From IMG/VR virus record IMGVR_UViG_3300044617_001156: 64,000 nt of DNA; one strand, 5' to 3'. The notes beneath the pieces were generated by a model, which saw nothing but the letters and a program-made list of their open reading frames with translations, did not search any database and was not told the origin of the DNA. The position numbers and the translations under genes are program-made. This document shows positions 6,039 to 34,068 of this stretch, in pieces (the first letter of the stretch is position 1; each line of letters begins with the position of its first letter). Source of the stretch: a virus.

Positions 6039-6356
6039 ATGGCAAACGGAAGATTAGCAGCAGTTACTCCAACTGCAAATACAGATACTTTATTGTATCA
6101 AGTTCCATCAACATCAACTGCAAGCACTGTAATTAATATCTGCAATACGAATACTTCATCTGCCGGTATTCGCATTTCAATTGAAAACAGTAGCGCAGTA
6201 GGAATTGCATCAACCAACTGTATTGAATTTGATACAATAGTTTCGGCAAAATCTGTTCTTGAAAGAGGTGGAATTGTTTTAGGAAATCAACAGAAACTGT
6301 TCTGCAATTCATCAATTTCTGGTGTTAACTTTATTGTTTACGGGTACGAAGAATAA
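6039..6356 (+). CDS. Small virion/fibre-associated protein (105 aa)
   Basis: Operonic; beta-rich sequence of a type common in phage fibre loci. Confidence 0.6.
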   Translation: MANGRLAAVTPTANTDTLLYQVPSTSTASTVINICNTNTSSAGIRISIENSSAVGIASTNCIEFDTIVSAKSVLERGGIVLGNQQKLFCNSSISGVNFIVYGYEE

Positions 6357-7711
6357 TGTCTAGAAATTTCGATTCATCAACAAGACTTTCTAATACCGCA
6401 AGTTTTTCTAGGTATGCTCCCTTACAATTAGATTTTGAAAGCCAAATTCTAATTACCTCCAATACAACTTTCATTGTTCCTCCAAATGCTAAGGCAGTTA
6501 AGTTTACTGCAGTAGGTGGAGGACAAGCAGGTGTTGGAACTACTTCTGGACCTGGAGCAGGATATTTTGAAAAAACTTTTTATGGTCCATTTATTGGACT
6601 TACAACAAGTTTTCAATTGACTATTGGAGCTGCAAATGGTGGTAATACAATTCTTAGAGATAGTGCAGGAACCACACTCGCAACAGCATTTGGAGCAACT
6701 GCAATTAGTACTGGTGCAACTGTAGGTGTTGGAGGAACTGCATTTGGAGGTGATCTAAACGCTCAAGGTTCTCCTGGTGGAATAACACCTGGAGTTGGTG
6801 GAGCATCTGGTGGTGCATTAGGCAATAGTGTTTATGATGCAACATATGCTGGTCGATGGGTTTATTTTAAAGAAAGTATTGTAAATGATAGCGTAAGAAA
6901 TTATTTTGTTAATACTTTAGAACTTAGTAGAGGTTCTAGAGTCACAACAATAGGATTTAATACTTTAGGAACTGTTACCGCGCAATATGGTGCTTTGATA
7001 AATCCTTCAGGACCAGGAGCAACTGTTGCTGGTATATTTGCTAATGGTGCAGGTGTTGGCGGTGCCGGTGGTTTTGGTGGAGATGGCGGTACCGGCGGCC
7101 CTGGTGGTTATGGAGGTAATGGCGGCGTTGCACCATATTCTGGCGGTACTGGAGGTTCTGGCGGTTATGGGGGCAGTGGAGGTCCTGGAAGGTCACCAGG
7201 TCCTGGTGGAGCTCCAGGTGGTGCTGGTGGTGCTGGCGGTTATGGTGGTGCCGGCGGAGCAGCATCTAGTGGAGTAGGAGGTCCAACAGGAACTACTCCG
7301 TATACTGGAGGTTTTCCTTCAGGTGGTGCTGGTGGTGCTGGTGGTGCTGGTGGTACTAGTGGTTTTGGTGGTGGAGGCGGCGCAGGAGGTTTTGGTGCTG
7401 CTGGTGGTCCTGGTGCTCCAAGAGTGTCTCGGCCCATGGGTCCTACTGGCGGATCTGGCGGTCCTGGCGGTCCTGGCGGCCCTGGCGGTCCCGGTGGTTT
7501 TGGTGGAGGAGGAGGCAGGGGCGGTGTCGGGGGAGCTGGTGGACTAGGGGGTCCAGGAGCATTATTACCGGCGACACCATATCAACCATCATCTCCAGGA
7601 GCACCAGGAGCAGCGGGTGCTGCTGGTGTCACAGGAACTCCGGGAAACGGAGGCGCTGGAGCAGTATATATTGAATGGACTATGAAAGAACCAAATAAAT
7701 TAGGAGTATAA
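6356..7711 (+). CDS. Glycine-rich (GGX, polyglycine-II-type) adhesin-like protein with many Pro residues
   Basis: F.VP..A..V...AVGGG and GGAGAVYIEW boundaries of a glycine-rich domain; long GGPGG/GGAGG tracts. Confidence 0.75.
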   Translation: MSRNFDSSTRLSNTASFSRYAPLQLDFESQILITSNTTFIVPPNAKAVKFTAVGGGQAGVGTTSGPGAGYFEKTFYGPFIGLTTSFQLTIGAANGGNTILRDSAGTTLATAFGATAISTGATVGVGGTAFGGDLNAQGSPGGITPGVGGASGGALGNSVYDATYAGRWVYFKESIVNDSVRNYFVNTLELSRGSRVTTIGFNTLGTVTAQYGALINPSGPGATVAGIFANGAGVGGAGGFGGDGGTGGPGGYGGNGGVAPYSGGTGGSGGYGGSGGPGRSPGPGGAPGGAGGAGGYGGAGGAASSGVGGPTGTTPYTGGFPSGGAGGAGGAGGTSGFGGGGGAGGFGAAGGPGAPRVSRPMGPTGGSGGPGGPGGPGGPGGFGGGGGRGGVGGAGGLGGPGALLPATPYQPSSPGAPGAAGAAGVTGTPGNGGAGAVYIEWTMKEPNKLGV

Positions 7712-7714
7712 GAA

Positions 7715-8335
7715 ATGTCAATTTACGCAGTTATAAACAAAGATACTAATTCTGCTGTAAATATCATTAATGTTGAAGATGAAAAATTCATTTTCTTAGG
7801 TCCTGATGAATATTATGCTCGTGCAAATAGAGCAGTTCGAATTGGAATGCTTTATGATAAACAAACTGGCACATTCCCAGAAGTAGGTGATAGAGGCGAA
7901 CTATTAGATTTAAGAGATGAAGTAGAATCTTTAATTACATCTCACCAATTAAAGATAGCAGAAAATTCTCATATGACTCCAGAACAACTGGAACCTCATA
8001 CCAATTATATAAGTCAATTGCAATCTATTTTGGCACTTGATTCTTATGTCGAAATGAAATCTCAGTTTGATACTATTGGACCCGAACCGGAATTTCCCCC
8101 CAAACCAAGAGAAATCACTCAAGATGTTTTCAGAAGTGTACTGAATCTTTCAGAAAAAATTCTCTGGGATAATCCAGAAATAGGAACAATACAACAAAAG
8201 GCAACAATTAATACTCTTAAGATGGACTTTCCTCATTATGGAGTTGAAAGTATGAGTGATGAACTTTCATTATTGGAGCAAGTTGAATTCTTTACACCAG
8301 AACGACTCACTGAAGTTACACGAGCACTTTCATAA
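7715..8335 (+). CDS. Putative fibre assembly/partner protein
   Basis: Follows the Gly-rich gene; N-terminal YAVIN..AVNII resembles the ORF at 30863 in the same syntenic position. Confidence 0.5.
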   Translation: MSIYAVINKDTNSAVNIINVEDEKFIFLGPDEYYARANRAVRIGMLYDKQTGTFPEVGDRGELLDLRDEVESLITSHQLKIAENSHMTPEQLEPHTNYISQLQSILALDSYVEMKSQFDTIGPEPEFPPKPREITQDVFRSVLNLSEKILWDNPEIGTIQQKATINTLKMDFPHYGVESMSDELSLLEQVEFFTPERLTEVTRALS

Positions 8336-8353
8336 TTCTTTACTTTCTTTACA

Positions 8354-9031
8354 ATGATACCTAAAATTATTCATCAAACTGGACCTGACAGAAAAAAGTG
8401 GCATTCAATCTGGAAAGAGTGTTCCGAAAGTTGGAAGAACACCTTTCCAGATTTTCAATATATGTACTGGACTGATGATGACATAAGAAATCTAGTCAAA
8501 GAACAATATTCAGAATTTTTAGAATTATACGATGCTTTCCCGCATCATATAATGAGAGTTGATTTTGCAAGATTCTGCATTTTACATTCTTATGGTGGAA
8601 TTTATGCAGATCTCGATATGTATTGTTATAAAAACTTTTATGATTTACTAAAAAGAAACCTTTATATTGCAGAATCTTGGAGTGAATGGGGAGAAAAGGT
8701 TCAGAATTCATTAATGATTTCTACGCCAAATCAAGAGTTCTGGGAAAAATGTATGTTTTTTTCTGGCGTTAAGTTTCTCTCAAATCATCAAAATTATTTT
8801 GATGATTATATTTTAGAATCGTGCGGTCCTAAGTTAATTTCTAGAATCTTAGATCCTTCTGTCAAATTTCTCCCAAAGGAATTGTTTAATCCTAAAGTTG
8901 AAAACCAGTTTAGTTTGTGTTGTGATAATGCAGAAAAATATAAAACTGCTCTCGATGACTTCAATAATTTAAAAAAAGAAAAAACTATTTTTACCAGACA
9001 CTTTTTAACTGGAGAATGGCCTACTAGTTGA
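8354..9031 (+). CDS. Glycosyltransferase, GT32/OCH1-like (DXD)
   Basis: MIPKIIHQT start; RVDFARFCILHSYGGIYADLD motif. Confidence 0.9.
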   Translation: MIPKIIHQTGPDRKKWHSIWKECSESWKNTFPDFQYMYWTDDDIRNLVKEQYSEFLELYDAFPHHIMRVDFARFCILHSYGGIYADLDMYCYKNFYDLLKRNLYIAESWSEWGEKVQNSLMISTPNQEFWEKCMFFSGVKFLSNHQNYFDDYILESCGPKLISRILDPSVKFLPKELFNPKVENQFSLCCDNAEKYKTALDDFNNLKKEKTIFTRHFLTGEWPTS

Positions 9032-9071
9032 AATAAATAATATTGACTGAATAATATAAAGAGTTTGAACT

Positions 9072-9707
9072 ATGGCATTTCAGAGTATCTGGTTTGAAAC
9101 CGGATTAAATCAAAAAATCATAGACATCATCGAAGAAGATCTCAAAGATAATTTCGATTCGCAACTACAAGACTCACGAGTTGGTGATGGTGATTATGGA
9201 ACAGTAGATAGAAATAAAAGAAACGCAAAAAATGCATGGGTTCCTACAACACACTGGGTTGCTGGTTTCGTATGGCATTACGTGCAGAGAGCAAATAGAG
9301 AAAACTTTCTTTATGATTTAACAAATATTGATGGAGAATCACTTCAATACACTGTGTATGGCGAAGGTGAATATTATGGTTGGCATAATGATGCGGGTAT
9401 TTCCACGTATTACAAACCAGTATCGTCAGGTAATCGCGGGCATACTGGAGACTGTTTAAGCGACTTTGTAAATGAAAACTGCGAGAAAGTAAGAAAGTTA
9501 TCTTTTAGTTTGCTTTTATCTGATCCTGATACTTATGAGGGTGGTAATCTTCAATTATTAGATGAAACGGGAAAGTCTTATATTTCTCCACGACAAAAAG
9601 GAACCATTATTCTTTTTGATTCTAGAACACAACATAGAGTTCAAAAAGTAACTAAAGGTGTTCGCAAGTCATTAGTTGGTTGGGTAGTTGGTCCACGTTT
9701 TAAATAA
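9072..9707 (+). CDS. 2OG-Fe(II) oxygenase (prolyl-hydroxylase/PKHD-like)
   Basis: WHND, RKLSFS, YEGG.L and HRVQKVTKGVRKSLVGW motifs; late promoter ATAAATA at 9033-9039. Confidence 0.9.
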   Translation: MAFQSIWFETGLNQKIIDIIEEDLKDNFDSQLQDSRVGDGDYGTVDRNKRNAKNAWVPTTHWVAGFVWHYVQRANRENFLYDLTNIDGESLQYTVYGEGEYYGWHNDAGISTYYKPVSSGNRGHTGDCLSDFVNENCEKVRKLSFSLLLSDPDTYEGGNLQLLDETGKSYISPRQKGTIILFDSRTQHRVQKVTKGVRKSLVGWVVGPRFK

Positions 9708-9722
9708 GAATGAGGTGATAAT

Positions 9723-10439
9723 ATGGCAGAACAAATGACACAACAAGAACTTGACTATCAAGAAAGAGTCAATTCTGGAACATCACCAACAAATAATAAG
9801 GAGTTTGATAAGAATGGATACCTAGTCTTAAGAAATCTATGGGATCCAAAAGATCTTTACTGTGAACCACCAACAATCAAAGGTCAATATAATTACTTTG
9901 GAAAAATTGATAAGTTTAACCATAATCCTGCAGAAAATCAGGTAGAAGGTTCAACTTCAAGGTATTATTATCCACCTTATAAGTACGCCCATTCGCAAAT
10001 TCGAATGAAACTTGAAAAAGCGATTGGCAAAAAACTTTATAATACTTATTATTATGACCGCTTTTATAATCCAGGGCAAGCACTGACTAAACATGCAGAT
10101 CGTCCAGCATGTGAGATTTCAGTTACAGTCCATGTGGGATCTAATATCAAAACTCCATGGCCTATTTGGATCAAAACACCGGACATTTACACGAGTGATG
10201 AAAAAACCAATGTTATAAGGAGAGGCGAAAATCGCTCAGTGATTTTAAATCCTGGTGATGGTATGATTTACAAAGGATGTGAAAGACCTCATTGGAGAGA
10301 TCCAATGCCAACCGAATATCATAGAACTTGGTATGGTAAGAAAACAGAAAAGGAAGGTTTATATTATCATCAAATCTTTTTCCACTATGTTCTTGCCGAT
10401 GGCATTCGTTCACATTATGCAGGTGATTCTGGAAATTAA
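9723..10439 (+). CDS. 2OG-Fe(II) oxygenase-like protein
   Basis: HADRPACEIS, PGDGMIYKGCERPHWR and QIFFHYV motifs (HxD...H triad). Confidence 0.8.
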   Translation: MAEQMTQQELDYQERVNSGTSPTNNKEFDKNGYLVLRNLWDPKDLYCEPPTIKGQYNYFGKIDKFNHNPAENQVEGSTSRYYYPPYKYAHSQIRMKLEKAIGKKLYNTYYYDRFYNPGQALTKHADRPACEISVTVHVGSNIKTPWPIWIKTPDIYTSDEKTNVIRRGENRSVILNPGDGMIYKGCERPHWRDPMPTEYHRTWYGKKTEKEGLYYHQIFFHYVLADGIRSHYAGDSGN

Positions 10440-10444
10440 TTTTT

Positions 10445-11266
10445 ATGAACTTTATACCATTAACAAGTTTACCTAGAAGTGGATCAACTTTACTTCTTTA
10501 CATTCTAAATCAGAATCCAAAATTTACAATTGGACCTGATTCTGAAATCGGTCAGTTACTGAATATTAATAAAGAATTTATATGTAGTAGTATATCACAT
10601 TTCCAATTACCCCACGAAACCGTTTCGGATTGTTTTTACAATTTTTGTAGGTCTGGGGTAGATTCGTGGATTAAAACAATCTCAGAACCAGAAACTATTT
10701 TCGTAGATAAGTCTAGACACTGGTTAAAAGATTTGGATTATATTTTTCAACTTTTCCCAAAATTAAAAATAGTAGTTACAATCAGAGATTTAAGGTCCGT
10801 CATAAATTCCTTCGAAAAAATATCACAAGATTCTTTATTCGTTAATAGATCAGATTCATTTCATACAATACACGAAGATCTACAATACCAAAGAGTAGAT
10901 AATATTTTAAATTTAGATTATCTCAGAGATGGATTATTTTCGCTAAGACAACTCATAGATATTCCAAAAAAATATAAGAACCAAATCTTTATTTCCAGAT
11001 ACGAAGATCTTATTGAAGACCCACAAAATCAGTTAAATGAGATTTATGATTTTCTTGGACTTGATCGATACACACATGATTTTAATAATTTAACTCAAGA
11101 TTTTTATAATGATAATCCATATCAACCCTTTGGACGCCATAAGATAAAATCAAAAATAGAAAAATCAAACACAGAAAGTTCTCTAAGATTAAGAGAGGAT
11201 ATTCAAGATATGATTTTTAGTCATTATCACTGGTACTTTAAGGAATTCTATCCAGAAAAATTATGA
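10445..11266 (+). CDS. Sulfotransferase
   Basis: LPRSGSTLL PAPS-binding loop; DKSR.W, RD...V.NS and RYEDL motifs. Confidence 0.9.
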   Translation: MNFIPLTSLPRSGSTLLLYILNQNPKFTIGPDSEIGQLLNINKEFICSSISHFQLPHETVSDCFYNFCRSGVDSWIKTISEPETIFVDKSRHWLKDLDYIFQLFPKLKIVVTIRDLRSVINSFEKISQDSLFVNRSDSFHTIHEDLQYQRVDNILNLDYLRDGLFSLRQLIDIPKKYKNQIFISRYEDLIEDPQNQLNEIYDFLGLDRYTHDFNNLTQDFYNDNPYQPFGRHKIKSKIEKSNTESSLRLREDIQDMIFSHYHWYFKEFYPEKL

Positions 11267-11841
11267 ATATTGTCAAACTATATGATACATTTCCCATTTA
11301 TTTGATTAAAGATTTCGAACAAGTTGAAGATAGTTTAAGAATTGCTTTAATGGCAGTTGTTTTAGAAAATAAAGTTCGAAACCATAGAGGAAAAGGTGGT
11401 TCTTTTTTAATTGATGAAGACTATAAAAATTTCTTCAAAAGTCTTTATAGTAAATTTTTCGAATTCTCAAAAACTATATTTGGAGATTTTACCACCTCAA
11501 ATAATAACGAAAGTTGTTGGTCTTATGCAAGTAATAAATTCGATCATGGTCCAGGATTATTACATAATCACCGGAATACTTCAACAATAAATTCGGTTTA
11601 TTATTTGAATGTTCCACAAACAGTATCAATATCTAATGGATCAATATCTTTTATATTAAATGGGGAGACATTTTCATATAAACCTGAAAATGGAGATCTA
11701 TTAATTTTTCCAAATTATCTAAATCATAAGATTAATTTTCTAGACGATGAAGAATATAGAATTTCTATTAATATGGAAATTAAATGTGAAGAGTCTTCAG
11801 AAGAATTATTTTCAAAAGTGGATATTTTAAATATTACATAA
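11263..11841 (+). CDS. Putative 2OG-Fe(II) oxygenase (TIGR02466-like)
   Basis: HNH...SVYYL, GDLLIFPNYLNH and RISI motifs. Confidence 0.8.
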   Translation: MNIVKLYDTFPIYLIKDFEQVEDSLRIALMAVVLENKVRNHRGKGGSFLIDEDYKNFFKSLYSKFFEFSKTIFGDFTTSNNNESCWSYASNKFDHGPGLLHNHRNTSTINSVYYLNVPQTVSISNGSISFILNGETFSYKPENGDLLIFPNYLNHKINFLDDEEYRISINMEIKCEESSEELFSKVDILNIT

Positions 11842-11862: not shown

Positions 11863-13941
11863 ATGGCTCTTAACTTCCCAGATAGTCCTACACTGAATCA
11901 AATATACACTGATAGTACTTCAGGTTTTTCTTATCAGTGGAATGGAACAGTATGGATAAGTTTTACACCATCATCTACGGGTAATATTAAAGTACTGGAT
12001 GATATTTCAGGTTCTTTCAATGGTTCTACACAGACCTTTGCATTAACCTCATCAACTATTGCACTGGCCCCACCAAACCCACAATCAGTCATTGTAAATC
12101 TTGGTGGTGTTGTACAAGACCCAAGTGATGACTATACAATCTCAGGGTCAAACATCATATTCTCCACACCGCCGACAGCAGGTCTTACATTCTCTGGTAT
12201 TGTCTTAGGTGTTGCAGTTCCTGTTGGAATTTCAACTGCAGATGCATACTATCGTCAGATTTATACACCAACAGGAGTACAGACCTCATTTAATTTCGTC
12301 AATGGATATACGGTAGGTTATCTGGATGTTTATCATAATGGTGCAAAGTTAGTTCCAGCAACAGACTACACAGCAACTGATGGCCTTAATTTCTCACTGA
12401 TTACTGCAGCACAATCAGGAGACGTTGTAGAAGCAATCGGATATAGAGTATCTGCAGTTACGATTGTAAATGGAAACTTAAATTCCTTAACCGTCAGTGG
12501 AATTTCAAGTCTTGCTGGTGCTACAAACCTTGGAAGTACTCTAAACGTAACTGGAGTTTCTACATTAGGTACTGTAAGAATTGCTTCAGGTATCGTTACT
12601 GCATCATCAGGTATTGTTACTTATTATGGTGATGGCAGTAATCTAAACTTAACAGGTAATACAACTGCTGGTGTAACTTCCACAAGTTCAGTCAATACCG
12701 TTGGTGTTGTTACTGCAGGTATCATTGATAGTTTTATTCCAGTAGATCAGAAGTTAGTAAGCACCAATTTAACTATTAATAACGGCCAAGAGAACATTAG
12801 TTTTGCCGAAGAATTAGTAGTTGATACTGGTTCGATATTCACAGTCAGTGCTGGAAGCACTGTGAGAATGAATGCTCTCGATACCATTAATGCATCTATA
12901 GTATCTGCTTCGGTAGATTTAGATATTCCTAGTGGTACTATAGCACAAAGACCTTCTGCTCCTACTTCAGGTTCTTTTAGATACAATAGTACATATGGTA
13001 TTCTAGAGTTTTATGATGGAACTAATTGGAGATTAGTATCATTAGGTGAACCATTATTTTCAAGTTCATCTAGTATCGGCGTCTTTGGTGGGGGCAGTTC
13101 ACCAATAAATGTAATAGATTACATAACCATAGAAACTACAGGAAATGCTGCTAACTTCGGAACCCTTACTGGAGCTCGCCAATCACTTGCCGCGTGTTCT
13201 TCCATTGCCAGAGGTGTTTTTGGTGGTGGTTTTGTTCCAGCAACTCCATCAGGTATAAGTTTAAGTGCAATAGATTACGTTGCCATAATATCTAGAGGAA
13301 CTGCCACTAATTTTGGAACCCTTACTGGAGCACGCTATAATTTAGCAGCGTGTTCTTCAAGCACTCGCGGTGTCTTTGGTGGTGGTAATAATGGTTCTAA
13401 CATCATAGATTACATCACAATAGCATCTACAGGAGACGCTATTGACTTTGGTGACCTTACTGTAGCACGTGGTGGTATTGCTGCATGTTCTTCTAGTACC
13501 AGAGGTGTTTTTGGTGGAGGTTATTTTACAGCACCATTTCCAGGAACACCATCAATTTATGCCACAATAGACTACATCAACTTCACATCCGTGGGAAATG
13601 CTACTAATTTTGGTTCACTTTCAACAAACCGCCGAAGTCTAGCAGCATGTTCTTCAAGCACCAGAGGTGTCTTTGGTGGTGGTTATACTCCATCACTAAC
13701 AAACGTAATAGACTTTATCACCATAGCATCCACAGGTAGCGCAACTGACTTTGGAGATTTAACTACTGCACGCTCTGGTTTAGCAGCTTGTTCCTCAAGT
13801 ACCAGAGGTGTCTTTGGTAGTGCAAATATAATGGACTACATTACAATAGCATCCACAGGAAATGCGCTTAACTTTGGTTCTTTTTCCACGTCACGTAGTG
13901 GATTAGCAGCCTGCTCCAACGCACACGGTGGTCTCTCATAA
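11863..13941 (+). CDS. Fibre protein with C-terminal six-repeat kelch-like beta-propeller (paralog 1)
   Basis: MALNFPDSP N-terminus; LDDISGSFNG domain; six RGVFGGG..IDYITIASTGNA.DFGDLT..R..LAACS repeats. Confidence 0.75.
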   Translation: MALNFPDSPTLNQIYTDSTSGFSYQWNGTVWISFTPSSTGNIKVLDDISGSFNGSTQTFALTSSTIALAPPNPQSVIVNLGGVVQDPSDDYTISGSNIIFSTPPTAGLTFSGIVLGVAVPVGISTADAYYRQIYTPTGVQTSFNFVNGYTVGYLDVYHNGAKLVPATDYTATDGLNFSLITAAQSGDVVEAIGYRVSAVTIVNGNLNSLTVSGISSLAGATNLGSTLNVTGVSTLGTVRIASGIVTASSGIVTYYGDGSNLNLTGNTTAGVTSTSSVNTVGVVTAGIIDSFIPVDQKLVSTNLTINNGQENISFAEELVVDTGSIFTVSAGSTVRMNALDTINASIVSASVDLDIPSGTIAQRPSAPTSGSFRYNSTYGILEFYDGTNWRLVSLGEPLFSSSSSIGVFGGGSSPINVIDYITIETTGNAANFGTLTGARQSLAACSSIARGVFGGGFVPATPSGISLSAIDYVAIISRGTATNFGTLTGARYNLAACSSSTRGVFGGGNNGSNIIDYITIASTGDAIDFGDLTVARGGIAACSSSTRGVFGGGYFTAPFPGTPSIYATIDYINFTSVGNATNFGSLSTNRRSLAACSSSTRGVFGGGYTPSLTNVIDFITIASTGSATDFGDLTTARSGLAACSSSTRGVFGSANIMDYITIASTGNALNFGSFSTSRSGLAACSNAHGGLS

Positions 13942-15972: not shown

Positions 15973-15975
15973 ATT

Positions 15976-16707: not shown

Positions 16708-16726
16708 CTAAAAATACCAAAGAACA

Positions 16727-17077
16727 ATGGCTATAACCCATCAAATGATAAAATACCGTCTCAATCCAGACGGAACCGTACCTGAATTCTTATGTAAAGA
16801 AGGTATGGGTGGTATTTTTCTAAAGTATGACCCAACCACTCCAGCACCACAAGACAATATTATGTTTGGTCTTAGTGAGTATCCAGTAACTACAGATACT
16901 CCTGGTATCGTTGGTATTCTCACAACTAAGACCGAACTCACCGCATATCTCAATGAGGTTCTTGCTGGTGCTACTCAACCAAACCCAGAAGACCCCCAAG
17001 GCGAACCCATTCCAGTAGATATCCCTGCTCAAGTAGAATGGGCGTGGGGCATTTATAAAGCACAAAACGGTCTCTAA
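16727..17077 (+). CDS. Hypothetical late protein (116 aa)
   Basis: Late promoter ATAAATA at 16700-16706; coherent ORF. Confidence 0.65.
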   Translation: MAITHQMIKYRLNPDGTVPEFLCKEGMGGIFLKYDPTTPAPQDNIMFGLSEYPVTTDTPGIVGILTTKTELTAYLNEVLAGATQPNPEDPQGEPIPVDIPAQVEWAWGIYKAQNGL

Positions 17078-19220: not shown

Positions 19221-19223
19221 GTT

Positions 19224-21378: not shown

Positions 21379-21411
21379 AAACAAATAAGATTATTGATTT
21401 TCAGTATACGA

Positions 21412-26200: not shown

Positions 26201-27984
26201 TTCTTGGTGACCTGTATGTAAGCAATAATATTTCTTTCGGTGGAACAGCAACTCAACTTAATACGCAGCAACTACAAATTTCTGATGCTGATATTGTATT
26301 AGGTATTGGAACCTCATTCAGTCCCACAGATAACACCGCAAATCACGGTGGTGTTGCAGTTGCTTCCACAGAAGGAACACCACTTGTAGATTTAAATATT
26401 GTTCCTGGTGAAACAAACCCATCCACATATAAGAAAATTATGTGGTTCAGGGGTGATACGATTGGTACTGGCCTAACTGATGCTTGGTTATTTAACTATG
26501 GTGTTGGTATTGGTTCTACACAAGTTCCCAATGGTGTAAGACTTGCTGCAGGTGCAGTTCAATTTACACAAAATGATTTAGCAGTCGTAAGAAATGTAAA
26601 CGCATCTGGTATTGTAACCGCATCAAATAGTGCTGTAATCAAAGCAGGAACCGCAACAACTGCTCTCATTGTTGAAGGCAACACCAGAATTGTTGGTATT
26701 CTCACCATTGGTAATTCTAGTATCACCTTAGATGGTGATATTAACCAAGTTAATGTTGGTTCTGGGGTTACACTTCACCATACCAATGGAGTTCAGGTAG
26801 GTGGAAATACTTTACATACTTCTGGTCTCACACTTAATCACGTCAATCTTTCTGGTATTACAACATTAGGTACTGTAAAGATTGCTTCAGGTATCGTTAC
26901 CGCAACTTCAGGTGTTGTTACTTATTATGGTGACGGTCAATATCTACAAAACATTCTTTCTGGAGTTGGTGTTGCTACTGCTGGAGGACTGGTAGGCACT
27001 GGGGCAACTATTTTAGATTTCCGTGGTGCTGGAATTTCTACAGTTACAGTTTCTGCTGGTATTGCAACCATCAATATAGTTGGTGGTGGAGGTGGTGGAG
27101 CAGTTAGTATTGGAACTCAAGCACCACCATCACCAACAAATGGTGACTTATGGTACAGTCCTGATTACGGAAGAACTTTCGTTTGGTATGATGAAGTAGC
27201 ATTAGGAATTGGTTCTACCTCAGTATGGGTTGATGCAGCTCCATTCAATAACTTCAAAGAAGAAGAATTAACTTCAGGAAAAGCAACAAATTCATTTACT
27301 GCAACTGGAAATCAATCACTATTCCCAGTAAGTTATACTGTTGGATATATTGATGTTTATTTGAATGGTATTCGCTTAAGTGATACTGAGTTCGTAGCAA
27401 CTAATGGTTCATCAATAACCTTAACTCAACCAGCATCATCTGGAGATATTATAGATGTCGTTCAATATACATTAGGCATTGGTGCTACTGGACCACAAGG
27501 TCCTCAGGGTCCTCTATCTCAAGTTGTTGGTATTACTTCAAGCATCGTACATTACCCATTAATCGTCTCTGGTGTTGGTAGTGTAACCGCATCCGTCACA
27601 ACAACATCCAATTACTTTAGTTTCACTCCATCCTCAGGAACTTTATCCGTAAATCAATTAAGTGTTGTTGGTGTAGCAACCGCAACTGATTTTAACTCAA
27701 CATCAGACATTAATCTGAAGGAAAATGTTAAGATTATTGATAACGCAGTTGATAAAGTAAATTCTATATCTGGTATTACCTTTAACTGGAAAGAAACTAA
27801 GAAACCTTCTGCTGGTGTAATTGCACAAGAAGTAGAAAAAGTTCTCCCAGAAATCGTACATGAAAATGATGGAAATAAAACTCTGAATTATAATGGTCTT
27901 ATTGGTCTTCTGATTGAAGCAGTCAAAGAGCAACAAGAGGAAATAAATAATTTGAAGACTAGACTTGAACGTTTGGAAGGATAA
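23221..27984 (+). CDS. Giant mosaic fibre protein: acidic coiled-coil repeats, 9-aa repeats, fibre modules and S74-like chaperone
   Basis: TTG start after CTAAATA at 23181-23187; PEVKYYD repeats; AGIATYSST repeats; C-terminal TSDINLK...GVIAQE...LIEAVKE. Confidence 0.8.
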   Translation: MKKKLLSPTELKQLHAQQEEQKKILATQKLEEEKNKKLVSPKELLDPVVEPVPIVESVEVSEVPKDPIEVLRERIEEVQYSIPEPKDYDEEIAYLEAILSTKLNSSDLNLEPIQNRLYELKEEILNLPEVKYYDDEISALQEQLNSIVIPEVRYYDEEISSLQQEINAIEIPEVKYYDKDVRDIHERLDLIKLSEDNTFQKHESILNELKTLTKELTNNLEQLYIPEEFDASELENHISTLQENVVEIKNELSSLPEVKYYENELTELSQMIENVRNSIPSIPEIKYYDTELQDLSSLIEEVRKNIPELPEVRYYENEISVLEQKILDVENQIPELPELPEVKYYDKEITQLEDNVVSVKKSISELKKLVDGIEIPVPTDWSSDIQSIYREIEKLKEVPVLEESTDPLVPLDQKFATLDDLQNHYRLFINRIQQQLASLGGGGETRLEFLDDIDRTSAKTDGYVLSYQASTGKFIGVPMSGGGGGGGSGISTYADVAGIATYATSAGVSTYASIAGIATYSSTSGIATYATTAGVATYSSVSGISTYSGIAGIATYATTAGIATYSGISGIATYASNAGVATYSTFSGIATYSSNAGVATYSGIAGVSTYSATAGIATYASTAGIATVSQGLTGTPSISVSSLTASNASFSGIVTASNSAVIKTGTATTALIVEGDARVIGILTIGTSSITLDGTINQVNVGTGVTLHHTNGVQVGGNTLHTTGLTLNHINVSGISTISQLDITNGINVSGVISATEFIGNFSGNSSTASYATNSGIATYASSAGVSTYSSTSGIATYSTAAGIATYASTAGISTYSTTAGVATYSPVSGVSTYSNTAGIATYSSVSGIATYAINAGISTYASSAGIATYSSTSGIATYATNAGISTYASTSGVSTYSETSGISTYASTAGVSTYASNAGVATYSSVSGIATYSTSSGIATYASSAGIATYAQTAGIATSAGAATTATYLADAANIITGTINKDRISTTNALTILGDLYVSNNISFGGTATQLNTQQLQISDADIVLGIGTSFSPTDNTANHGGVAVASTEGTPLVDLNIVPGETNPSTYKKIMWFRGDTIGTGLTDAWLFNYGVGIGSTQVPNGVRLAAGAVQFTQNDLAVVRNVNASGIVTASNSAVIKAGTATTALIVEGNTRIVGILTIGNSSITLDGDINQVNVGSGVTLHHTNGVQVGGNTLHTSGLTLNHVNLSGITTLGTVKIASGIVTATSGVVTYYGDGQYLQNILSGVGVATAGGLVGTGATILDFRGAGISTVTVSAGIATINIVGGGGGGAVSIGTQAPPSPTNGDLWYSPDYGRTFVWYDEVALGIGSTSVWVDAAPFNNFKEEELTSGKATNSFTATGNQSLFPVSYTVGYIDVYLNGIRLSDTEFVATNGSSITLTQPASSGDIIDVVQYTLGIGATGPQGPQGPLSQVVGITSSIVHYPLIVSGVGSVTASVTTTSNYFSFTPSSGTLSVNQLSVVGVATATDFNSTSDINLKENVKIIDNAVDKVNSISGITFNWKETKKPSAGVIAQEVEKVLPEIVHENDGNKTLNYNGLIGLLIEAVKEQQEEINNLKTRLERLEG
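24685..26110 (+). repeat. Two arrays of 27-bp/9-aa repeats ([AS]G[IV][AS]TY[AS]xx)
   Basis: Arrays at about 24685-25105 and 25520-26110, visible in the translation. Confidence 0.9.
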
Positions 27985-27986
27985 TA

Positions 27987-28724
27987 ATGGGAAAGGCACG
28001 TCAGTCAGCAAATCTAGTCAGCGACGATAATATCTTCGTAGATGTTAGTAACGATAGAGTTGGTATTGGAAGCACTGCACCAACCACAAAACTAGATGTA
28101 AATGGAACAGTCAAAGCAACTAGTTTCAGTGGTAATGGAAGTGGATTAACTAATCTATCAGTATCTTATGTTCCTACTGCTGGAGTTGCTACTTATTCTT
28201 CAACAGCAGGAGTATCTACAGTATCACAAGGTCTTACTGGAACTCCTAATATCTCAGTTGGTTTCGCCACAGTATCAAATAATCTTAATGTAAGTGGAGT
28301 TTCAACATCAAATGAAGCTAGATTTTTATCAGTTGCTGAAAGAATTGTAAGAGTTGATGGAAATACAGTAAGTATTGCTTATACAACCACTGGAGCAAAT
28401 ATTGGTTTATGTACCAATCCAACGGGTAATATTACATTAGCAGTTACTGGAATTCCAACTGATAGTTCTTTTGATAACCACGCCATTTCTTTTTCAATTT
28501 TCATCAATCAAACTGGGACGGCAAGAAGTTGTACGGCAGTGACTTTGAATGGAGTACCAGAAACTATTCGTTGGGCTGGTGGTTCGTTAGCAGCTGCTAT
28601 TGTCGGTGTTACGACATTAAGAGGATATGATATTTACAATTTCACAGGAATTAATACAATTGGTTCCGCAAGTACGGCAGCAAACTATGAAGTTCTCGGT
28701 GTTGTAAATGGAGGATTTAGATAA
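27987..28724 (+). CDS. Short tail fibre protein
   Basis: NDRVGIGSTAPTTKLDVNG motif; shares the AGVATYS..QGLTGTP.I module with 23221. Confidence 0.75.
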   Translation: MGKARQSANLVSDDNIFVDVSNDRVGIGSTAPTTKLDVNGTVKATSFSGNGSGLTNLSVSYVPTAGVATYSSTAGVSTVSQGLTGTPNISVGFATVSNNLNVSGVSTSNEARFLSVAERIVRVDGNTVSIAYTTTGANIGLCTNPTGNITLAVTGIPTDSSFDNHAISFSIFINQTGTARSCTAVTLNGVPETIRWAGGSLAAAIVGVTTLRGYDIYNFTGINTIGSASTAANYEVLGVVNGGFR

Positions 28725-28727
28725 GTT

Positions 28728-29720
28728 ATGTCTCCACTTATTTCTAGGATTAGTTCTGCTGGTATTATTAATTCGACAAGTGGATTTAATGTAGGAAGAA
28801 GAAGACCTGGTTTAGCACTGGGTCTTTATGATTTTACGACATTTACTTTTACTAACGGAACACAAACTGGACCAACTGGACCTGCATTAGCAAATCTTTT
28901 ATCAGCATATAATACTGGTACAAATCCTTGGTTGAATAATACCGCATATTTTAATACTACGAGTGGAATTCAATTATGGACTGTTCCTAAAACTGGTTCA
29001 TATACAATTGATGCTTATGGTGCTGCGGGTGGTAATGGTTCTCCAGGAACCGGCGGAGGTGCTGGTGCTCGCATGATGGGAACATTTAGCCTAACTCAAG
29101 GTGATAAAATAAGAATACTTGTCGGTCAAATGGGAGCATCTTCTGGTTTAGTTGGTGGTGGAGGTGGAGGAACTTTCGTCATGAAAGAAACTGGAACTGT
29201 AACATCAGACATTTATGTAATCGCTGGTGGTGGTGGAGGAGGATATTATTCTTCTTATAATAGTGGGTCGCAGACAGGAACAACATCATCGACAGGACAA
29301 ACCGGAAGAGATGGAGGATATGGTAGAAATGCTGGTTCTGGTGGAGCAGGTCCAAATGGAGGAAGTATCTCTCCAAATTTAAACGATGGTGGAGGAGCAG
29401 GTGGCGGATTAACTGGTAATGGAGCAAGTAGTCCATATTCAGCACAAGCAGCTGCTGGTTCTGGTGGAAATTCTTTCAGTAATGGTGGTAATGCAGCCAC
29501 TGGTAAGAGTTACCCCGGTGGTTTTGGTGGTGGTGGTTCCGGAGATTGGTATTCTTGGACCGGCGGCGGTGGCGGAGGAGGATATGGCGGTGGAGGTAGT
29601 GGATCTTATTATGGAAACGGTGGAGGTGGAGGTTCCTATAATAATGGAACCAGTCAAACAAATACATCTGGAGCAAGGTCAGGTGCTCATGGACAAGTAA
29701 TCATAACCTTCGTTTCTTAA
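28728..29720 (+). CDS. Glycine-rich protein, ALK/LTK-like glycine-rich domain
   Basis: FTN...TGPTGP, GIQLWTVP.TG.Y.I.AYGAAGG, ILVGQMG, GGGGGTFV and VIAGGGGG motifs. Confidence 0.75.
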   Translation: MSPLISRISSAGIINSTSGFNVGRRRPGLALGLYDFTTFTFTNGTQTGPTGPALANLLSAYNTGTNPWLNNTAYFNTTSGIQLWTVPKTGSYTIDAYGAAGGNGSPGTGGGAGARMMGTFSLTQGDKIRILVGQMGASSGLVGGGGGGTFVMKETGTVTSDIYVIAGGGGGGYYSSYNSGSQTGTTSSTGQTGRDGGYGRNAGSGGAGPNGGSISPNLNDGGGAGGGLTGNGASSPYSAQAAAGSGGNSFSNGGNAATGKSYPGGFGGGGSGDWYSWTGGGGGGGYGGGGSGSYYGNGGGGGSYNNGTSQTNTSGARSGAHGQVIITFVS

Positions 29721-29769
29721 GACACTAAAAGAGTTCTAATAGAATAAATAGATGTAAAAAGAAATAAAA

Positions 29770-30849
29770 ATGTCTTTAATTCGCTCAAGATTAGTAGGAG
29801 ATGTTGTCTCCGGTTCGACATTTGCCGGTATTGTAACAGCAACTGGTTTTCAAGGGAATTTAGTAGGCAATGTAACTGGTAATGTAACTGGAAACGTCAC
29901 TGGAAATGTAACGGGTAACCTTACTGGAAACGTCACTGGAAATGCAAATATAGGAATTCTTACAGTAACATCAACAATTACTGTAGGTAATAGCACTGGT
30001 AACGCAGGACAATATCTCCAGTCTACTGGAGTTGGTGTTACCTGGGCAGATATCAGTACTTTTATAGGTGGGCGTGATTCTATTCTAATTGGTTTTAATT
30101 CTGTAGGTCTTAGAAGTGATAGTGGTAATGGAAGATTAGAAGTATTTGGAACTGGCAATTTTAGAGTGTATGACTCTCCAGGAACATTTGTAGTTAATCC
30201 TGGCATTTCATCAATTCGAGTAAGAGTTGTTGGTGCTGGTGGTAATGGAAGTCCATCAACATTAGGTCCAAGCGGCAACCCCGGAGTCAGCGGTGGTGGT
30301 GGAGGAGGTGGAGGATATGCCCATAAAGTAATCACTAGTTTCTCAGCACCAAGAACTTATACTGTTACCGTAGGAACTCCTGGTGGAGGAACAAGTTCTT
30401 TTGGAAGTGAGGTTTCGGCAACTGGCGGTTCAGTTGGATCAATTATCTTTGGAGGAACAGGTGGTTCTGGTATCAATGGAGATTTTAATGCAACAGGAGC
30501 TACAGGTCCATCAGTTTCACCAGGTGTGTTCCCACCAACGGGCGTTGGAGGAGGCACCGGTGCACCTGGCGGTGCTGCAGGAACTCAAAAAGGAAATGGT
30601 TCTGGTATCAATGTTCCGTCACCAGCAACCCCATCAACTACAAGACGTTTTATAAATAGATTTCCTTTTGATATTTTTGAAAGTGAATTAAGCGTCGGTA
30701 ACGGTGGCAGCTCCGGTTCTGGTGGCGGCCCATCTTTATCTGGCAGCCCAGGAGGAATTGGTGGCGGTGGTGGAGGTGGAGTTGGAGGTTTTCTTCAAGC
30801 GGGTGCTGGTGGAGCCGGTGGTCGCGGTATTGTAATCGTAGAATGGTAA
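29770..30849 (+). CDS. Fibre protein with Pro-containing glycine-rich tip
   Basis: About seven GNVT repeats; RVRVVGAGG and GGRGIVIVEW motifs; late promoter at 29744-29750. Confidence 0.75.
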   Translation: MSLIRSRLVGDVVSGSTFAGIVTATGFQGNLVGNVTGNVTGNVTGNVTGNLTGNVTGNANIGILTVTSTITVGNSTGNAGQYLQSTGVGVTWADISTFIGGRDSILIGFNSVGLRSDSGNGRLEVFGTGNFRVYDSPGTFVVNPGISSIRVRVVGAGGNGSPSTLGPSGNPGVSGGGGGGGGYAHKVITSFSAPRTYTVTVGTPGGGTSSFGSEVSATGGSVGSIIFGGTGGSGINGDFNATGATGPSVSPGVFPPTGVGGGTGAPGGAAGTQKGNGSGINVPSPATPSTTRRFINRFPFDIFESELSVGNGGSSGSGGGPSLSGSPGGIGGGGGGGVGGFLQAGAGGAGGRGIVIVEW

Positions 30850-30862
30850 GGAGGTAAAAACC

Positions 30863-31408: not shown

Positions 31409-31436
31409 ACTAGATAATACATCTTACATTTAAATT

Positions 31437-32111
31437 ATGATTTCGTCATATTTTACCGAACAGAAATTTGACCTCAATAAGATACCACCAGTCATAAATC
31501 CTGAGGAATTTAAACATAAAACTCAGGAATTTTGGTATCTAAAACATCATGACTACCAACCATTTGTATTCGTAGATGATGTATTTGGTGAAGATGAGGT
31601 CAATCAAATCATCAAACTTGGAAATCTTTATGTAGAAGAACAAGCATATACTGGCGGAACAATTGGTGCAATCAACAAAGAAATTCGTGCATGTAAACTT
31701 GCTTGGATGTTTCCAAATAACTACACTGAGTGGATTTATCGAAAAATTACTGATGTAGTCAATCAAGTTAATGAGCAGTACTTTAAGTTTGATTTGACCA
31801 AATTGGAAACTTTACAATTTACAAAGTATAAGGAAGAAGAAAGTGGATTTTATGAGAAACACACTGACCCAATACCAGGTCAATATCTACCAGAAAATCG
31901 TAAGTTAAGTCTTGTCGTTCAACTTTCAGACCCCAGTGAGTATGAAGGTGGAGACTTATGTTTGCATACAGCAAAGGACCCTACAGTTATTGAAAAGAAA
32001 AAAGGAAGAATAATATTCTTTCCATCATACACATTACATGAAGTTAAACCAGTTACTCAAGGTACACGATATACCTTAGTTGGTTGGACACATGGACCAG
32101 CATTTAAGTGA
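31437..32111 (+). CDS. 2OG-Fe(II) oxygenase (PKHD-like)
   Basis: HTD, RKLSLVVQLSDP.EYEGG and HEVKPVTQGTRY motifs; paralog of 9072. Confidence 0.9.
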   Translation: MISSYFTEQKFDLNKIPPVINPEEFKHKTQEFWYLKHHDYQPFVFVDDVFGEDEVNQIIKLGNLYVEEQAYTGGTIGAINKEIRACKLAWMFPNNYTEWIYRKITDVVNQVNEQYFKFDLTKLETLQFTKYKEEESGFYEKHTDPIPGQYLPENRKLSLVVQLSDPSEYEGGDLCLHTAKDPTVIEKKKGRIIFFPSYTLHEVKPVTQGTRYTLVGWTHGPAFK

Positions 32112-32115
32112 GGTT

Positions 32116-32688
32116 ATGATGAGTTTTAAGAAAAAAGGATATCAAGTTATCAGAAACTTTCTAGAACCAGAGTTTGTAAGTTTTATTCAAGAGTATTTCT
32201 TCGTAAGAATTAATGCAGCACAAGCAACTGTTGACCCTCAAGCACCCTTCAGTTACTCATTTTATGCTGACCCATTGATTGAAACAGTTCTTGGAAAGTC
32301 ATGTAAACCTTTAGGTGAACTTGTAGGTCTAAGACTATTACCACAATACACTTATACTAGACTTTATCAAGAAAAGGATGAGTTAGTGATTCATCGTGAC
32401 CGTCCTTCATGTGAAATCTCAGCAACTCTTTCATTAGGTTTCCCTGAAGGTGAAGAGATTAATCCAATCTACTTCAGTAAGAATGAGGATAAATCAGATG
32501 CAACTGAAATTAAATTAAATCCAGGAGACCTTTGCTTATATCGTGGATGTGATTTATATCACTGGAGAGAACCTTTTAAGAACCAATGGTATCTTCAAGC
32601 ATTTCTGCATTATGTGGATGGTAATGGACCTTATAAAGACCAACTTTATGATGGAAGACCATTCCTAGCAATGCAGAAGCAATCTTAA
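32116..32688 (+). CDS. 2OG-Fe(II) oxygenase-like protein
   Basis: HRDRPSCEIS and HWRE motifs; paralog of 9723; start reassigned to the ATG at 32116 after a GAGG RBS. Confidence 0.8.
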   Translation: MMSFKKKGYQVIRNFLEPEFVSFIQEYFFVRINAAQATVDPQAPFSYSFYADPLIETVLGKSCKPLGELVGLRLLPQYTYTRLYQEKDELVIHRDRPSCEISATLSLGFPEGEEINPIYFSKNEDKSDATEIKLNPGDLCLYRGCDLYHWREPFKNQWYLQAFLHYVDGNGPYKDQLYDGRPFLAMQKQS

Positions 32689-32712
32689 TAAATACCTAAA
32701 AAGTATAAAGAG

Positions 32713-34068
32713 ATGTCGGTTACTAAAGCTCAACTTATAGGTAATGTATCGGCAGGAGCAAGTTTTTCTGGTATTGTAACTGCTACTAGTTTCAGAGGAG
32801 ATGGTAGTGATCTTACTGGTGTTGGTATTGGAACCACTGGGTCTGTTAATACTATAGGTATTGGTACTTTTGGTACTGTAGTTGCTTCGAATATTAATGT
32901 TTCTGGTGTAATCACTGCTACAAGTTTCAGTGGAGATGGCTCTGGATTAACTGGTGTTGGTGTTGGTTCTAGTGATAGCATTAACACTACAGGTATTGGT
33001 ACTTTTGGTACTGTTGTTGCTACTGCAGACCTCGATATACCTAGTGGAACTACGTCACAAAGGCCTTCTGTTCCAACTGCAGGTTCCTTTAGGTACAATA
33101 ATGAATTTGGATTTTTAGAATTTTACGATGGATCCAATTGGAGACAAATATTATTAGGTTCTCAATTAGTTCCAGCTGGTGCTGGTATCTTCGCTGGTGG
33201 TTCTCCTAGCACTTACGATGCGCCCTCATTAAACATAATAGACTATATCACCATAGCAAACACAGGAAACGCAACTGACTGGGGTGACCTTAGTGTATCA
33301 CGTTTTTCTCTTGGTGCATGTTCTTCAAGTAGTAGAGGTGTCTTTGGTTCAGGATATGTAGCTCCATCCCAGATTCAAGTAAATGTAATAGACTACATTA
33401 CCATATCAACCATTGGTAACGCCATAGATTTTGGTGACCTTACTGTAGTACGTAATGGTGCGGAGGGTTGCTCTTCAAGCACTCGCGGTGTCTTTGGTGG
33501 TGGTTTTCTTTCTCCAGGATTTTTGCAAAATGTAATAGACTACATCACCATAGCAACTACAGGTAATGCTACTGACTTTGGAGACTTAACTGTAGCACGT
33601 CAATCTGACGGTGCCTGTTCCTCAAGCACTCGGGGTGTCTTTGGTGGTGGTACTACTCCATCAAATACAAACACAATAGACTATATCACCATAGCATCTA
33701 CAGGAAACGCAGTTGACTTTGGTGACCTTACGGTAGCACGCGGAGTATCGGCTTGCTCTTCAAGTACCAGAGGTGTCTTTGGTGGTGGTAACACTACACC
33801 AGTATTATCTAACACAATAGACTTCATCACCATAGCATCCAACGGAAATGCAACTGACTTTGGAGACCTTACAGTACGACGTTTTGCTCTTGCAGCATGT
33901 TCTTCAAGTACCAGAGGTGTCTTTGGTGGTGGTTATGCCCCAACAGCATCTAACATAATAGACTACATCACCATAGCAACTACAGGTAACGCAACTGACT
34001 TTGGAGACCTAACTGTAGCACGTACTGGTTTAGTAGCGTGCTCTAACTCACACGGTGGTCTCTCATAA
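32713..34068 (+). CDS. Beta-propeller fibre-tip protein (paralog 5)
   Basis: Same architecture as 21463; six repeats. Confidence 0.75.
   Translation: MSVTKAQLIGNVSAGASFSGIVTATSFRGDGSDLTGVGIGTTGSVNTIGIGTFGTVVASNINVSGVITATSFSGDGSGLTGVGVGSSDSINTTGIGTFGTVVATADLDIPSGTTSQRPSVPTAGSFRYNNEFGFLEFYDGSNWRQILLGSQLVPAGAGIFAGGSPSTYDAPSLNIIDYITIANTGNATDWGDLSVSRFSLGACSSSSRGVFGSGYVAPSQIQVNVIDYITISTIGNAIDFGDLTVVRNGAEGCSSSTRGVFGGGFLSPGFLQNVIDYITIATTGNATDFGDLTVARQSDGACSSSTRGVFGGGTTPSNTNTIDYITIASTGNAVDFGDLTVARGVSACSSSTRGVFGGGNTTPVLSNTIDFITIASNGNATDFGDLTVRRFALAACSSSTRGVFGGGYAPTASNIIDYITIATTGNATDFGDLTVARTGLVACSNSHGGLS

Follow-up and report, generated by a model that had tools for sequence, protein, structure and literature searches.

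The DNA analysed here, referred to below as the window, is a 64,000-nucleotide stretch of viral sequence from IMG/VR (IMGVR_UViG_3300044617_001156), and our subject is a set of tail-fibre propeller proteins encoded in it together with the 2-oxoglutarate (2OG)-Fe(II) oxygenases, sulfotransferases, glycosyltransferases and radical S-adenosylmethionine (SAM) enzyme whose genes lie among them. Bases 1-36000 are occupied by a plus-strand series of tail-fibre genes, recognised through PHROG tail-fibre families and PF13884, with the enzyme genes interspersed. A sequence-only reading had described fibre-tip genes interleaved with enzyme genes, and Pfam and other checks found the gene content as described, and every propeller gene has one or more of these enzyme genes beside it. 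Megablast of 20 kb of the window against 50,697 phage records gave 0 matches, and protein matches point to T4-like cyanophages; the region therefore represents a tail-fibre module from a divergent marine phage of the T4-like group, and its receptor-binding tips are six-bladed Kelch-type propellers.

Propellers and the enzymes encoded among them

The five propeller genes all lie on the plus strand. PROP1 (11863..13941) is a fibre protein whose C-terminal part forms a six-blade Kelch-type propeller, PROP2 (13957..15027) is a six-blade Kelch-type propeller, and PROP3 (18105..19220), PROP4 (21463..22749) and PROP5 (32713..34068) are further six-blade propellers. The AlphaFold2 (AF2) model of PROP2, with a mean predicted local distance difference test (pLDDT) score of 90.4, matches the Kelch domains of KLHL12 and KEAP1 in Foldseek with template-modelling (TM) scores of 0.84-0.88, and shares with them the six four-stranded blades and the GG doublet of the Kelch fold. 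Kelch domains carry variable loops on one face. The phage proteins differ from these eukaryotic domains in sequence (11-16% identity), in lacking a match to any Pfam family, Kelch included, at E ≤ 0.01 for all five propellers, and in setting, as fibre tips with a single propeller or with 12- or 18-blade forms. Their only PHROG match is phrog_19111, labelled function unknown. The family is very large, with at least 8000 metagenome proteins matched, and S-SKS1 is the only isolate in which tblastn matched the propeller domain. A blade profile of 46 positions was run on 234 related proteins, of which 191 have exactly six blades, 24 have twelve and a single one has eighteen; 6-, 12- and, once, 18-blade forms occur in L047, L039, L015 and other loci, and a contig may carry up to 13 paralogs (L004, L005).

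The loop that follows the GG doublet of each blade is hypervariable apart from one fixed proline. Counting exactly after the G-[IVL]-F-G-G-G strand upheld the earlier figure of a proline in 27 of 30 loops, distributed as 4/6 in PROP1, 5/6 in PROP4 and 6/6 in each of PROP2, PROP3 and PROP5. From Kelch topology we take this loop to be the 2-3 (B-C) loop, which shares the ligand-binding face with the 4-1 loop. By this analogy the loop proline would lie on the ligand-binding face of the propeller and, by the symmetry of the fold, all six prolines would be placed on one face. The linker domain of the propeller proteins is also found in duplicate, in a 73-amino-acid open reading frame (ORF) at 17899-18120 (..PPGGLPEQR..GQIRF..EYYNGTTW) that stands behind ATAAATA boxes of its own (17860, 17864). 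Its reading frame differs from that of PROP3, whose TTG start it overlaps, and it may represent either a remnant or the product of a split gene or frameshift.

Seven 2OG-Fe(II) oxygenases had been proposed for the region. Five are recognised by Pfam (9072, 19224, 31437, 11263, 20749), and the two others, at 9723 and 32080 (previously placed at 32116), can be called oxygenase-like only, since they carry a motif with no family match beyond phrog_2954. We use OX3 for the prolyl 4-hydroxylase (P4H)-like type of family PF13640 (gathering cut-off 27 bits), found at 9072, 19224 and 31437, OX5 for the PF13759/TIGR02466 type (TIGR02466 cut-off 62.5 bits) at 11263 and 20749, and X for the oxygenase-like protein with an HxD...H motif at 9723, with its paralog X' at 32080. 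OX3a (9072..9707, plus strand) scores 54.1 bits against PF13640, belongs to phrog_61, and has PiuC/YbiX-type PKHD hydroxylases as its best match in the Protein Data Bank (PDB). OX3b (19224..19856, minus strand) scores 53.5 bits, and its orthologs adjoin propeller arrays. OX3c (31437..32111, plus strand) scores 71.3 bits and matches both PiuC and the prolyl 4-hydroxylase of chlorovirus PBCV-1 (5c5t, E 4.8e-4). An alignment of 13 OX3 sequences places the iron triad at the invariant H133 and H192 and the nearly invariant D135, with R202, likewise invariant, as the basic residue that binds 2OG. Of the OX5 enzymes, OX5a (11263..11841, plus strand; phrog_81) scores 39.6 bits against PF13759 and falls below the TIGR02466 cut-off, and OX5b (20749..21384, minus strand) scores 80.3 bits against PF13759 and 88.2 bits against TIGR02466, above the cut-off.

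The proteins X (9723..10439) and X' (32080..32688), both on the plus strand, are 29% identical and have the H-x-D ... H motif in common. Both match phrog_2954 (1.5e-58 and 7e-45), which is labelled 'ferrochelatase'; neither matches a Pfam or NCBIfam family, and X has no PDB match. The same label recurs on phrog_3531, a second 'ferrochelatase' PHROG that OX3b and OX3c match, and on PSSM2_169 of phage P-SSM2 (L082, 140630-141223), which shares 52.5% identity with OX3b, a PF13640 oxygenase. In all three cases the label appears to be a propagated misannotation of oxygenase-like proteins, and the 'ferrochelatase partner' described for pelagiphage 2OG oxygenases (PMC9599517) may be affected by it as well.

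A radical SAM/SPASM enzyme, as previously proposed, is encoded at 19814..20752 on the minus strand between OX3b and OX5b. It has the cluster-binding motif C28NYKC32WFC35 (C-x3-C-x2-C) and a SPASM domain (51.1 bits), and its Radical_SAM score of 29.3 bits is just under the cut-off of 29.5. The best PDB match, BtrN, is restricted to the N-terminal cluster-binding part. Among the propeller-first and oxygenase-first loci described below, the enzyme is confined to Type I cassettes, and no isolate homolog was found. The CSSSTR segment of the blade was considered as a specific target of an anSME-like activity and rejected, as it is equally conserved in proline-poor phages that lack the radical SAM enzyme.

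Late-type promoter boxes stand ahead of the enzyme blocks as they do ahead of the fibre genes. On the plus strand of bases 1-36600, 13 of 14 copies of the ATAAATA core lie 13-39 nucleotides upstream of a start codon (binomial P ~5e-18). Of the late promoters proposed earlier for the enzyme blocks, those at 9033, 15049 and 16700 hold as late-type boxes, each reading AATAAATA; the one put at 21412 on the minus strand reads CTAAATAT and is no such box. The box at 9033..9039 (plus strand, ATAAATA) is 33 nucleotides upstream of the enzyme block 9072-11841. Most of the enzyme genes are behind late-type boxes, which are predicted promoters. The exact TATAAATA occurs at two places only in the window, at 21437, ahead of PROP4, and at 30651. 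The boxes of the propeller genes, at 11838 (PROP1), 13938 (PROP2), 21438 (PROP4) and 32688 (PROP5), follow a longer consensus, ATAAATA(C/T)CTAAA(A/G), that reaches the start codon, and those of the enzyme genes fit this consensus more poorly.

Loop proline and the oxygenase pair in related phages

Related loci were gathered from two directions. A propeller-first sample of 78 IMG/VR loci (L001-L078) was retrieved through the propeller, with enzymes and blades called in each, and an oxygenase-first sample of 80 loci was retrieved through relatives of OX3b, with propellers searched for within 6 kb; the whole comparison covers ~190 related loci. Throughout, the blade scaffold is constant and loop proline is bimodal, at ~84% of blades in one class and ~20% in the other. 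Per locus, the proline fraction ranges from 0.75 to 0.96 in the window and 14 propeller-first loci and from 0 to 0.47 in the remaining 64. Only column 9 of the blade profile differs between the classes, with proline in 82% of 380 non-redundant blades from proline-rich loci vs 18% of 827 from proline-poor loci. As oxygenase-free relatives keep the scaffold with proline in ~20% of loops, the residue is not needed for the fold, and a purely structural role for it was rejected on the same ground. Proline codons at the loop site match the general usage of the genes and are uninformative.

The proline-rich class coincides with the OX3/OX5 pair. The pair adjoins the propeller array in 11 of the 14 proline-rich IMG/VR loci (in some of them seen on reading the rest of the contig), the other three being fragments of 11-20%, and in one of the 64 proline-poor loci (L066, proline fraction 0.47). 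Approached from the oxygenase side, a propeller lies within 6 kb in 53 of 80 loci, and all 53 are proline-rich (0.60-1.0). Equally proline-rich loops in homologs without the enzymes, which the sequence-only reading had named as evidence against itself, were not seen in near-complete oxygenase-free genomes; these are proline-poor, and no PF13640 or PF13759 gene was found anywhere in proline-poor contigs rated 87-100% complete (47-65 kb). That reading had also raised the possibility that loop-proline frequency tracks adjacent oxygenase and glycosyltransferase genes. It does track the oxygenase pair, while the glycosyltransferase of the 15976 type accompanies proline-rich and proline-poor propellers alike. 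The literature searched contained no account of phage receptor-binding propellers in which proline at a single position goes together with an oxygenase pair.

Three gene orders carry the association. In Type I loci the propeller array is convergent with OX3-(radical SAM)-OX5, as at 18105-21384 of the window, and 293 of 348 blades have the proline. Type II loci have propeller-(sulfotransferase)-OX5-OX3 on one strand (494 of 587 blades), and in a third arrangement (L160/161) OX5-OX3 is convergent with a 15976-type glycosyltransferase gene followed by the propeller gene (20 of 24 blades). Across these orders the pairing of proline and oxygenases recurs in T4-like phages, in HTVC023P-type phages and in the siphovirus S-SKS1. 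Type II loci are not from cyanomyoviruses: the next gene, of 700 amino acids, is 48% identical to proteins of the Pelagibacter phages HTVC027P and HTVC023P. HTVC023P-type phages are ~60 kb in size, and by the CheckV estimate 24.6 kb amounts to 40% of a genome. One Type II locus lies within a SAR11 single-cell assembly. The view that the association is a trait of cyanophages only is weakened accordingly. Many proline-poor loci carry a homolog of the same neighbouring 700-amino-acid gene (32-36% identity), so the contrast in loop proline exists within one broad phage type too.

S-SKS1, a 208-kb Synechococcus siphovirus with a divergent propeller, has proline in 23 of 24 loops. Across its entire genome PF13759, the sulfotransferases and X are each represented by a single gene and PF13640 by a single strong match, and all four lie inside a 9.5-kb propeller cluster that makes up ~4.6% of the genome. 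The cluster is found at both ends of the linear record (~200.3-208.0 kb and 0-1.6 kb; L079, L085) and is thus one contiguous cluster split by the start of the record. The PF13640 match is in a 92-amino-acid ORF that may be a fragment. From the genomic association with the loop proline, OX3 is predicted to hydroxylate peptidyl-proline.

Sulfotransferases, glycosyltransferases and other fibre proteins

Both sulfotransferases proposed for the window were recovered as members of PF13469. Sulfotransferase 1 (10445..11266, plus strand; 78.1 bits) has the protein-tyrosine sulfotransferases TPST1/2 as its best PDB matches (E ~2e-6, residues 5-123), and sulfotransferase 2 (17095..17898, plus strand; 68.9 bits) has an N-terminal GLPRSGST loop for binding 3′-phosphoadenosine 5′-phosphosulfate (PAPS). 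Protein-tyrosine sulfotransferases are the closest PDB matches of both, which also show a weak likeness to the carbohydrate enzyme NoeE. No PAPS synthetase turned up in the Pfam scans of the region. In the related loci a sulfotransferase is exclusive to those that are proline-rich and bear oxygenases, and serine, threonine and tyrosine are equally frequent in proline-poor loops; together these findings fit, without proving, an acceptor hydroxyl that comes from the oxygenases. Tyrosine as the acceptor found no support, the share of loops that hold it being 0.26 with a neighbouring sulfotransferase, 0.26 without one and 0.28 in proline-poor loci.

The two glycosyltransferases of the sequence-only reading also hold as enzyme assignments, the one at 8354 through PF04488 and the one at 15976 through an invariant DxD and a glycosyltransferase A (GT-A) fold. 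The first (8354..9031, plus strand) is of GT32 type with the DXD sugar-binding region (65.1 bits), and is found in the window only, with no relative in the 78 propeller loci. The second (15976..16707, plus strand) has invariant residues D72-x-D74, E200-D201 and H225, an AF2 model with pLDDT 81, a weak Anp1 match, and Foldseek matches to STIV A197 (best), Mnn9, ppGalNAc-Ts and COLGALT1 at E values of 6e-8 to 1e-5. A distant paralog with 24% identity, in which the DxD is kept, is encoded at 58517-59284, in an early region away from the fibre genes.

The GT-A gene is the middle member of a cassette (15079-17077) that starts with A (15079..15972, plus strand), a coiled-coil protein that matches no known family and is a near-universal neighbour of propeller genes, and ends with C (16727..17077, plus strand, behind the box at 16700), a small proline-rich protein of 116 amino acids. 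Neither A nor C has a PDB profile match, an Atlas lead or an isolate homolog. In the 78 propeller loci A is present in 54, the glycosyltransferase in 37 and C in 41, proline-rich and proline-poor alike, and A is found in most genome-contig loci too. In many phage contigs that are not related to one another (L001-L078, L095-L123), the cassette is placed after the last propeller gene, with sizes of ~280 amino acids for A, ~245 for the GT-A enzyme and ~115 for C, and it also occurs in contigs binned to metagenome-assembled genomes of Patescibacteria, Nanoarchaeia and Methanospirillum. It belongs to propellers in general, not to the proline system, and A, being nearly always present, could serve the propeller as chaperone or partner.

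This distribution does not support one step of the pathway as first proposed, in which hydroxylation would be followed by glycosylation. The GT-A enzyme accompanies propellers regardless of proline and oxygenases and is missing from most Type II loci, though oxygenases are present there, and the GT32-type enzyme is without relatives in the related loci. Glycosylation of hydroxyproline is thus left without support from co-occurrence, and on that criterion only, hydroxyproline does not emerge as a glycosyltransferase acceptor.

The late-type boxes ahead of the enzyme blocks, the NoeE likeness of the sulfotransferases and the usual preference of GT32 and GT-A enzymes for glycans would also suit enzymes that mask or destroy the receptor on the surface of the infected cell late in infection, freeing progeny and blocking superinfection, with the proline loops co-adapted to a class of receptor. 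Cyanophage glycosyltransferases are commonly interpreted as modifiers of the host surface (PMC12801897). However, no signal peptide or membrane anchor was noticed on the enzymes, in an analysis that included no search aimed at them; P4H-type enzymes target peptidyl-proline, the only proline signal to emerge lies in loops of the phage itself, and the link between loop proline and oxygenases would have to be indirect. We consider this explanation improbable.

A further candidate substrate lies among the other fibre proteins of the region, all on the plus strand. The fibre region opens with two tail-fibre genes (170-3910 and 4353-5804) that match phrog_529 tail fiber (7.9e-120) and PHROGs of fibre/baseplate C-termini, with an ATAAATA box at 4308. 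They are followed by a glycine-rich fibre-tip protein with GGP/GPG runs (6356..7711; 31.7% glycine, 7.5% proline), for which neither a Pfam or PHROG family nor a relative in the 78 propeller loci was found. A later block (23221..30849) comprises a long fibre (23221-27984, 1587 amino acids) ending in an S74 chaperone, a small fibre protein and two glycine-rich tips (28728-29720 and 29770-30849), with matches to PF13884, PF12810 (weak), PF21722 and PHROG tail-fibre families; the 29770 protein has 26.7% glycine and 5.0% proline. In the C-terminal half of the 6356 protein there are GGPGGPGGPGGPGG and GGxGG runs, which include collagen-like X-Pro-Gly sites.

With such GGPGGPGGPGGPGG-type runs at hand, the modified virion proteins could be mainly the glycine/proline-rich tips (6356, 28728, 29770) or other fibres, hydroxylated at X-Pro-Gly sites in the manner of collagen, and bacterial operons of dioxygenases and a sulfotransferase have been predicted to target collagen-like or tail-collar proteins (PMC2938197). 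The glycine-rich proteins, however, have almost no relatives in oxygenase-bearing loci, the 6356 type occurring in the window only and the 29770 type in three other loci, whereas a propeller is present at 53 of 80 oxygenase-first loci. It is therefore very doubtful that the glycine-rich tips are the principal substrates.

A predicted modification of the propeller binding face

The analysis shows to which families the enzymes belong and which catalytic motifs they carry, how the propeller is folded, where late-type boxes stand, and that loop proline and the oxygenase pair are associated in the genomes. These findings lead us to the reading that the OX3/OX5 pair hydroxylates the fixed proline of the binding-face loop in each blade of the phage's own propeller tips. 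We put the probability of this at about one half. We infer the propeller as the substrate, the proline as the modified residue, and the order of hydroxylation followed by sulfation; for loci with a sulfotransferase, we hold sulfation of the hydroxylated product with less certainty than the hydroxylation. In the proposed sequence of events, propellers would be newly made late in infection, and the P4H-like OX3 with its constant partner OX5 would hydroxylate the loop prolines. Where present, a sulfotransferase (10445, 17095) would then use the resulting hydroxyl. In this way the binding face would acquire a ring of modified and possibly charged residues, by which receptor recognition may be altered or shielded. 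The idea of a post-translational pathway that decorates fibre loops, put forward in the sequence-only reading, is therefore retained in part: proline fixation coincides with the OX5-OX3 pair in several phage types and gene orders, while the glycosylation step and the minus-strand late promoter are not supported.

In its most elaborate form, the proposal would give each propeller a ring of six O-sulfated hydroxyprolines, processed further in some phages by a radical SAM dehydrogenase-like enzyme, and would have the module move between unrelated phage families. This is speculative and in our view unlikely to be correct in full. We know of no protein that has been described with sulfated hydroxyproline.

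Several findings weigh against hydroxylation of the propeller loops, and a number of them favour another explanation, in which the genes for the oxygenases, the sulfotransferases and the radical SAM enzyme have an auxiliary role, with substrates outside the virion (host translation factors or ribosomal proteins, small molecules, secondary metabolites), the enzymes and fibres merely share a hyperplastic part of the genome, and the loop proline is a co-transferred lineage trait of one propeller clade. The matches of OX3 in the PDB and NCBIfam are to PKHD hydroxylases of the YbiX/PiuC type, whose substrates are unknown or non-fibre, and lie below curated cut-offs. PSSM2_169, the closest isolate homolog of OX3b, is in the replication module of P-SSM2, a genome that has no propeller, so the OX3b subfamily is not everywhere tied to propellers, and ~22 of 80 OX3b-type loci have no propeller within 6 kb. 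Published readings of such genes are as auxiliary metabolic genes (AMGs) or metabolite enzymes (PMC9599517, PMC2938197, PMC9146016).

The phylogenies bear on the same question. The tree of the propeller scaffold is poorly resolved, its supported branches force only two or more changes of class, with one independent pair supported, and a single clade for all proline-rich propellers was not rejected by the approximately unbiased (AU) test (p = 0.50). Independent origins of the proline-rich propellers could thus not be shown, and one origin followed by co-transfer of a module of propeller plus oxygenase is possible. In the OX3 tree, genes next to a propeller are spread over at least 3-5 clades, among which lie clades lacking a nearby propeller. 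Other difficulties are more local. The minus-strand cassette of OX3b, the radical SAM enzyme and OX5b has no late box, only a sigma-70-like TTGTGC-17-TATACT, and it is unexplained why a radical SAM enzyme, which is O2-sensitive, should be encoded between two enzymes that depend on O2. Two loci are possible exceptions to the association: L105, where OX3 and X lie 3 kb from a proline-poor propeller, and L099, which is proline-rich with no oxygenase on its 13.6-kb contig.

An auxiliary role outside the virion would nevertheless leave three observations unexplained. One proline position is kept in ~1,300 otherwise hypervariable blades only beside the oxygenase pair, the adjacency persists through three gene orders and both orientations, and in S-SKS1 the propeller cluster contains the only OX5 gene together with the sulfotransferase and the strong OX3 match. 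On balance we regard the auxiliary-gene explanation as one to be taken seriously, if somewhat unlikely.

Hydroxylation of the propeller loops, with sulfation in some loci, has its nearest counterpart in bacterial operons predicted by Iyer, Abhiman, de Souza and Aravind in 2010, in which 2OG dioxygenases and a sulfotransferase would hydroxylate and then sulfate collagen-like or T4 tail-collar proteins (PMC2938197). In both cases the dioxygenase and sulfotransferase genes adjoin a presumed structural substrate, and in both the hydroxylation and ensuing sulfation are predictions. Dioxygenase and sulfotransferase genes are encoded together with a structural protein in the window, in Type I and Type II loci and in S-SKS1. 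The bacterial operons differ in their dioxygenases, which are of the beta-hydroxylase/PhyH families, in often including a PAPS synthetase, in their bacterial genomes and in their collagen-like or tail-collar substrates, whereas here the families are PF13640 and PF13759, the genomes are those of phages and a Kelch-type propeller, with one proline per blade, is the candidate for modification. The same authors interpreted cyanophage dioxygenase arrays as secondary-metabolite genes (PMC2938197).

Among viral systems, Wittmers et al. (2022) described pelagiphage 2OG-Fe(II) oxygenases beside a 'ferrochelatase' as 'partner AMGs' of HTVC023P-type phages (PMC9599517). These probably belong to the same OX3, OX5 and X families and occur in the phage type of our Type II loci, but the paper reads them as iron-related or metabolic AMGs and makes no link to fibres or loop proline. 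A 2OG 'prolyl dihydroxylase' has been detected in a cyanomyovirus virion preparation (PMC12801897). In mycobacteriophages, glycosylation of capsid and tail-tube proteins was shown by experiment (Freeman et al., 2023, as cited in PMC12801897). As presented there, phage-encoded transferases decorate the phage's own virion proteins, a likeness to the system proposed here, which would differ in consisting of hydroxylation, and possibly sulfation, of receptor-binding tips. The PBCV-1 prolyl 4-hydroxylase matched by OX3c is likewise a virus-encoded member of the P4H family. Giant viruses encode enzymes for the hydroxylation and glycosylation of their own virion proteins. Compared with PBCV-1 and giant-virus systems, the sequence likeness is weak, the hosts there are eukaryotic, and the substrates are proline-rich repeats in place of a single propeller-loop proline.

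Cyanophage and pelagiphage genomes are rich in 2OG oxygenases that lack an assigned substrate and are usually filed as auxiliary metabolic genes. If the reading given here is true, part of these oxygenases would tailor the phage's own receptor-binding propellers, which would change how an abundant group of genes is read, and the phage sulfotransferases would gain a first function. The candidate site is one defined residue per blade, and the cultured phage S-SKS1, which infects Synechococcus WH7803, carries the whole set. A post-translational layer would thereby be added to the determination of host range in some of the ocean's most numerous viruses.

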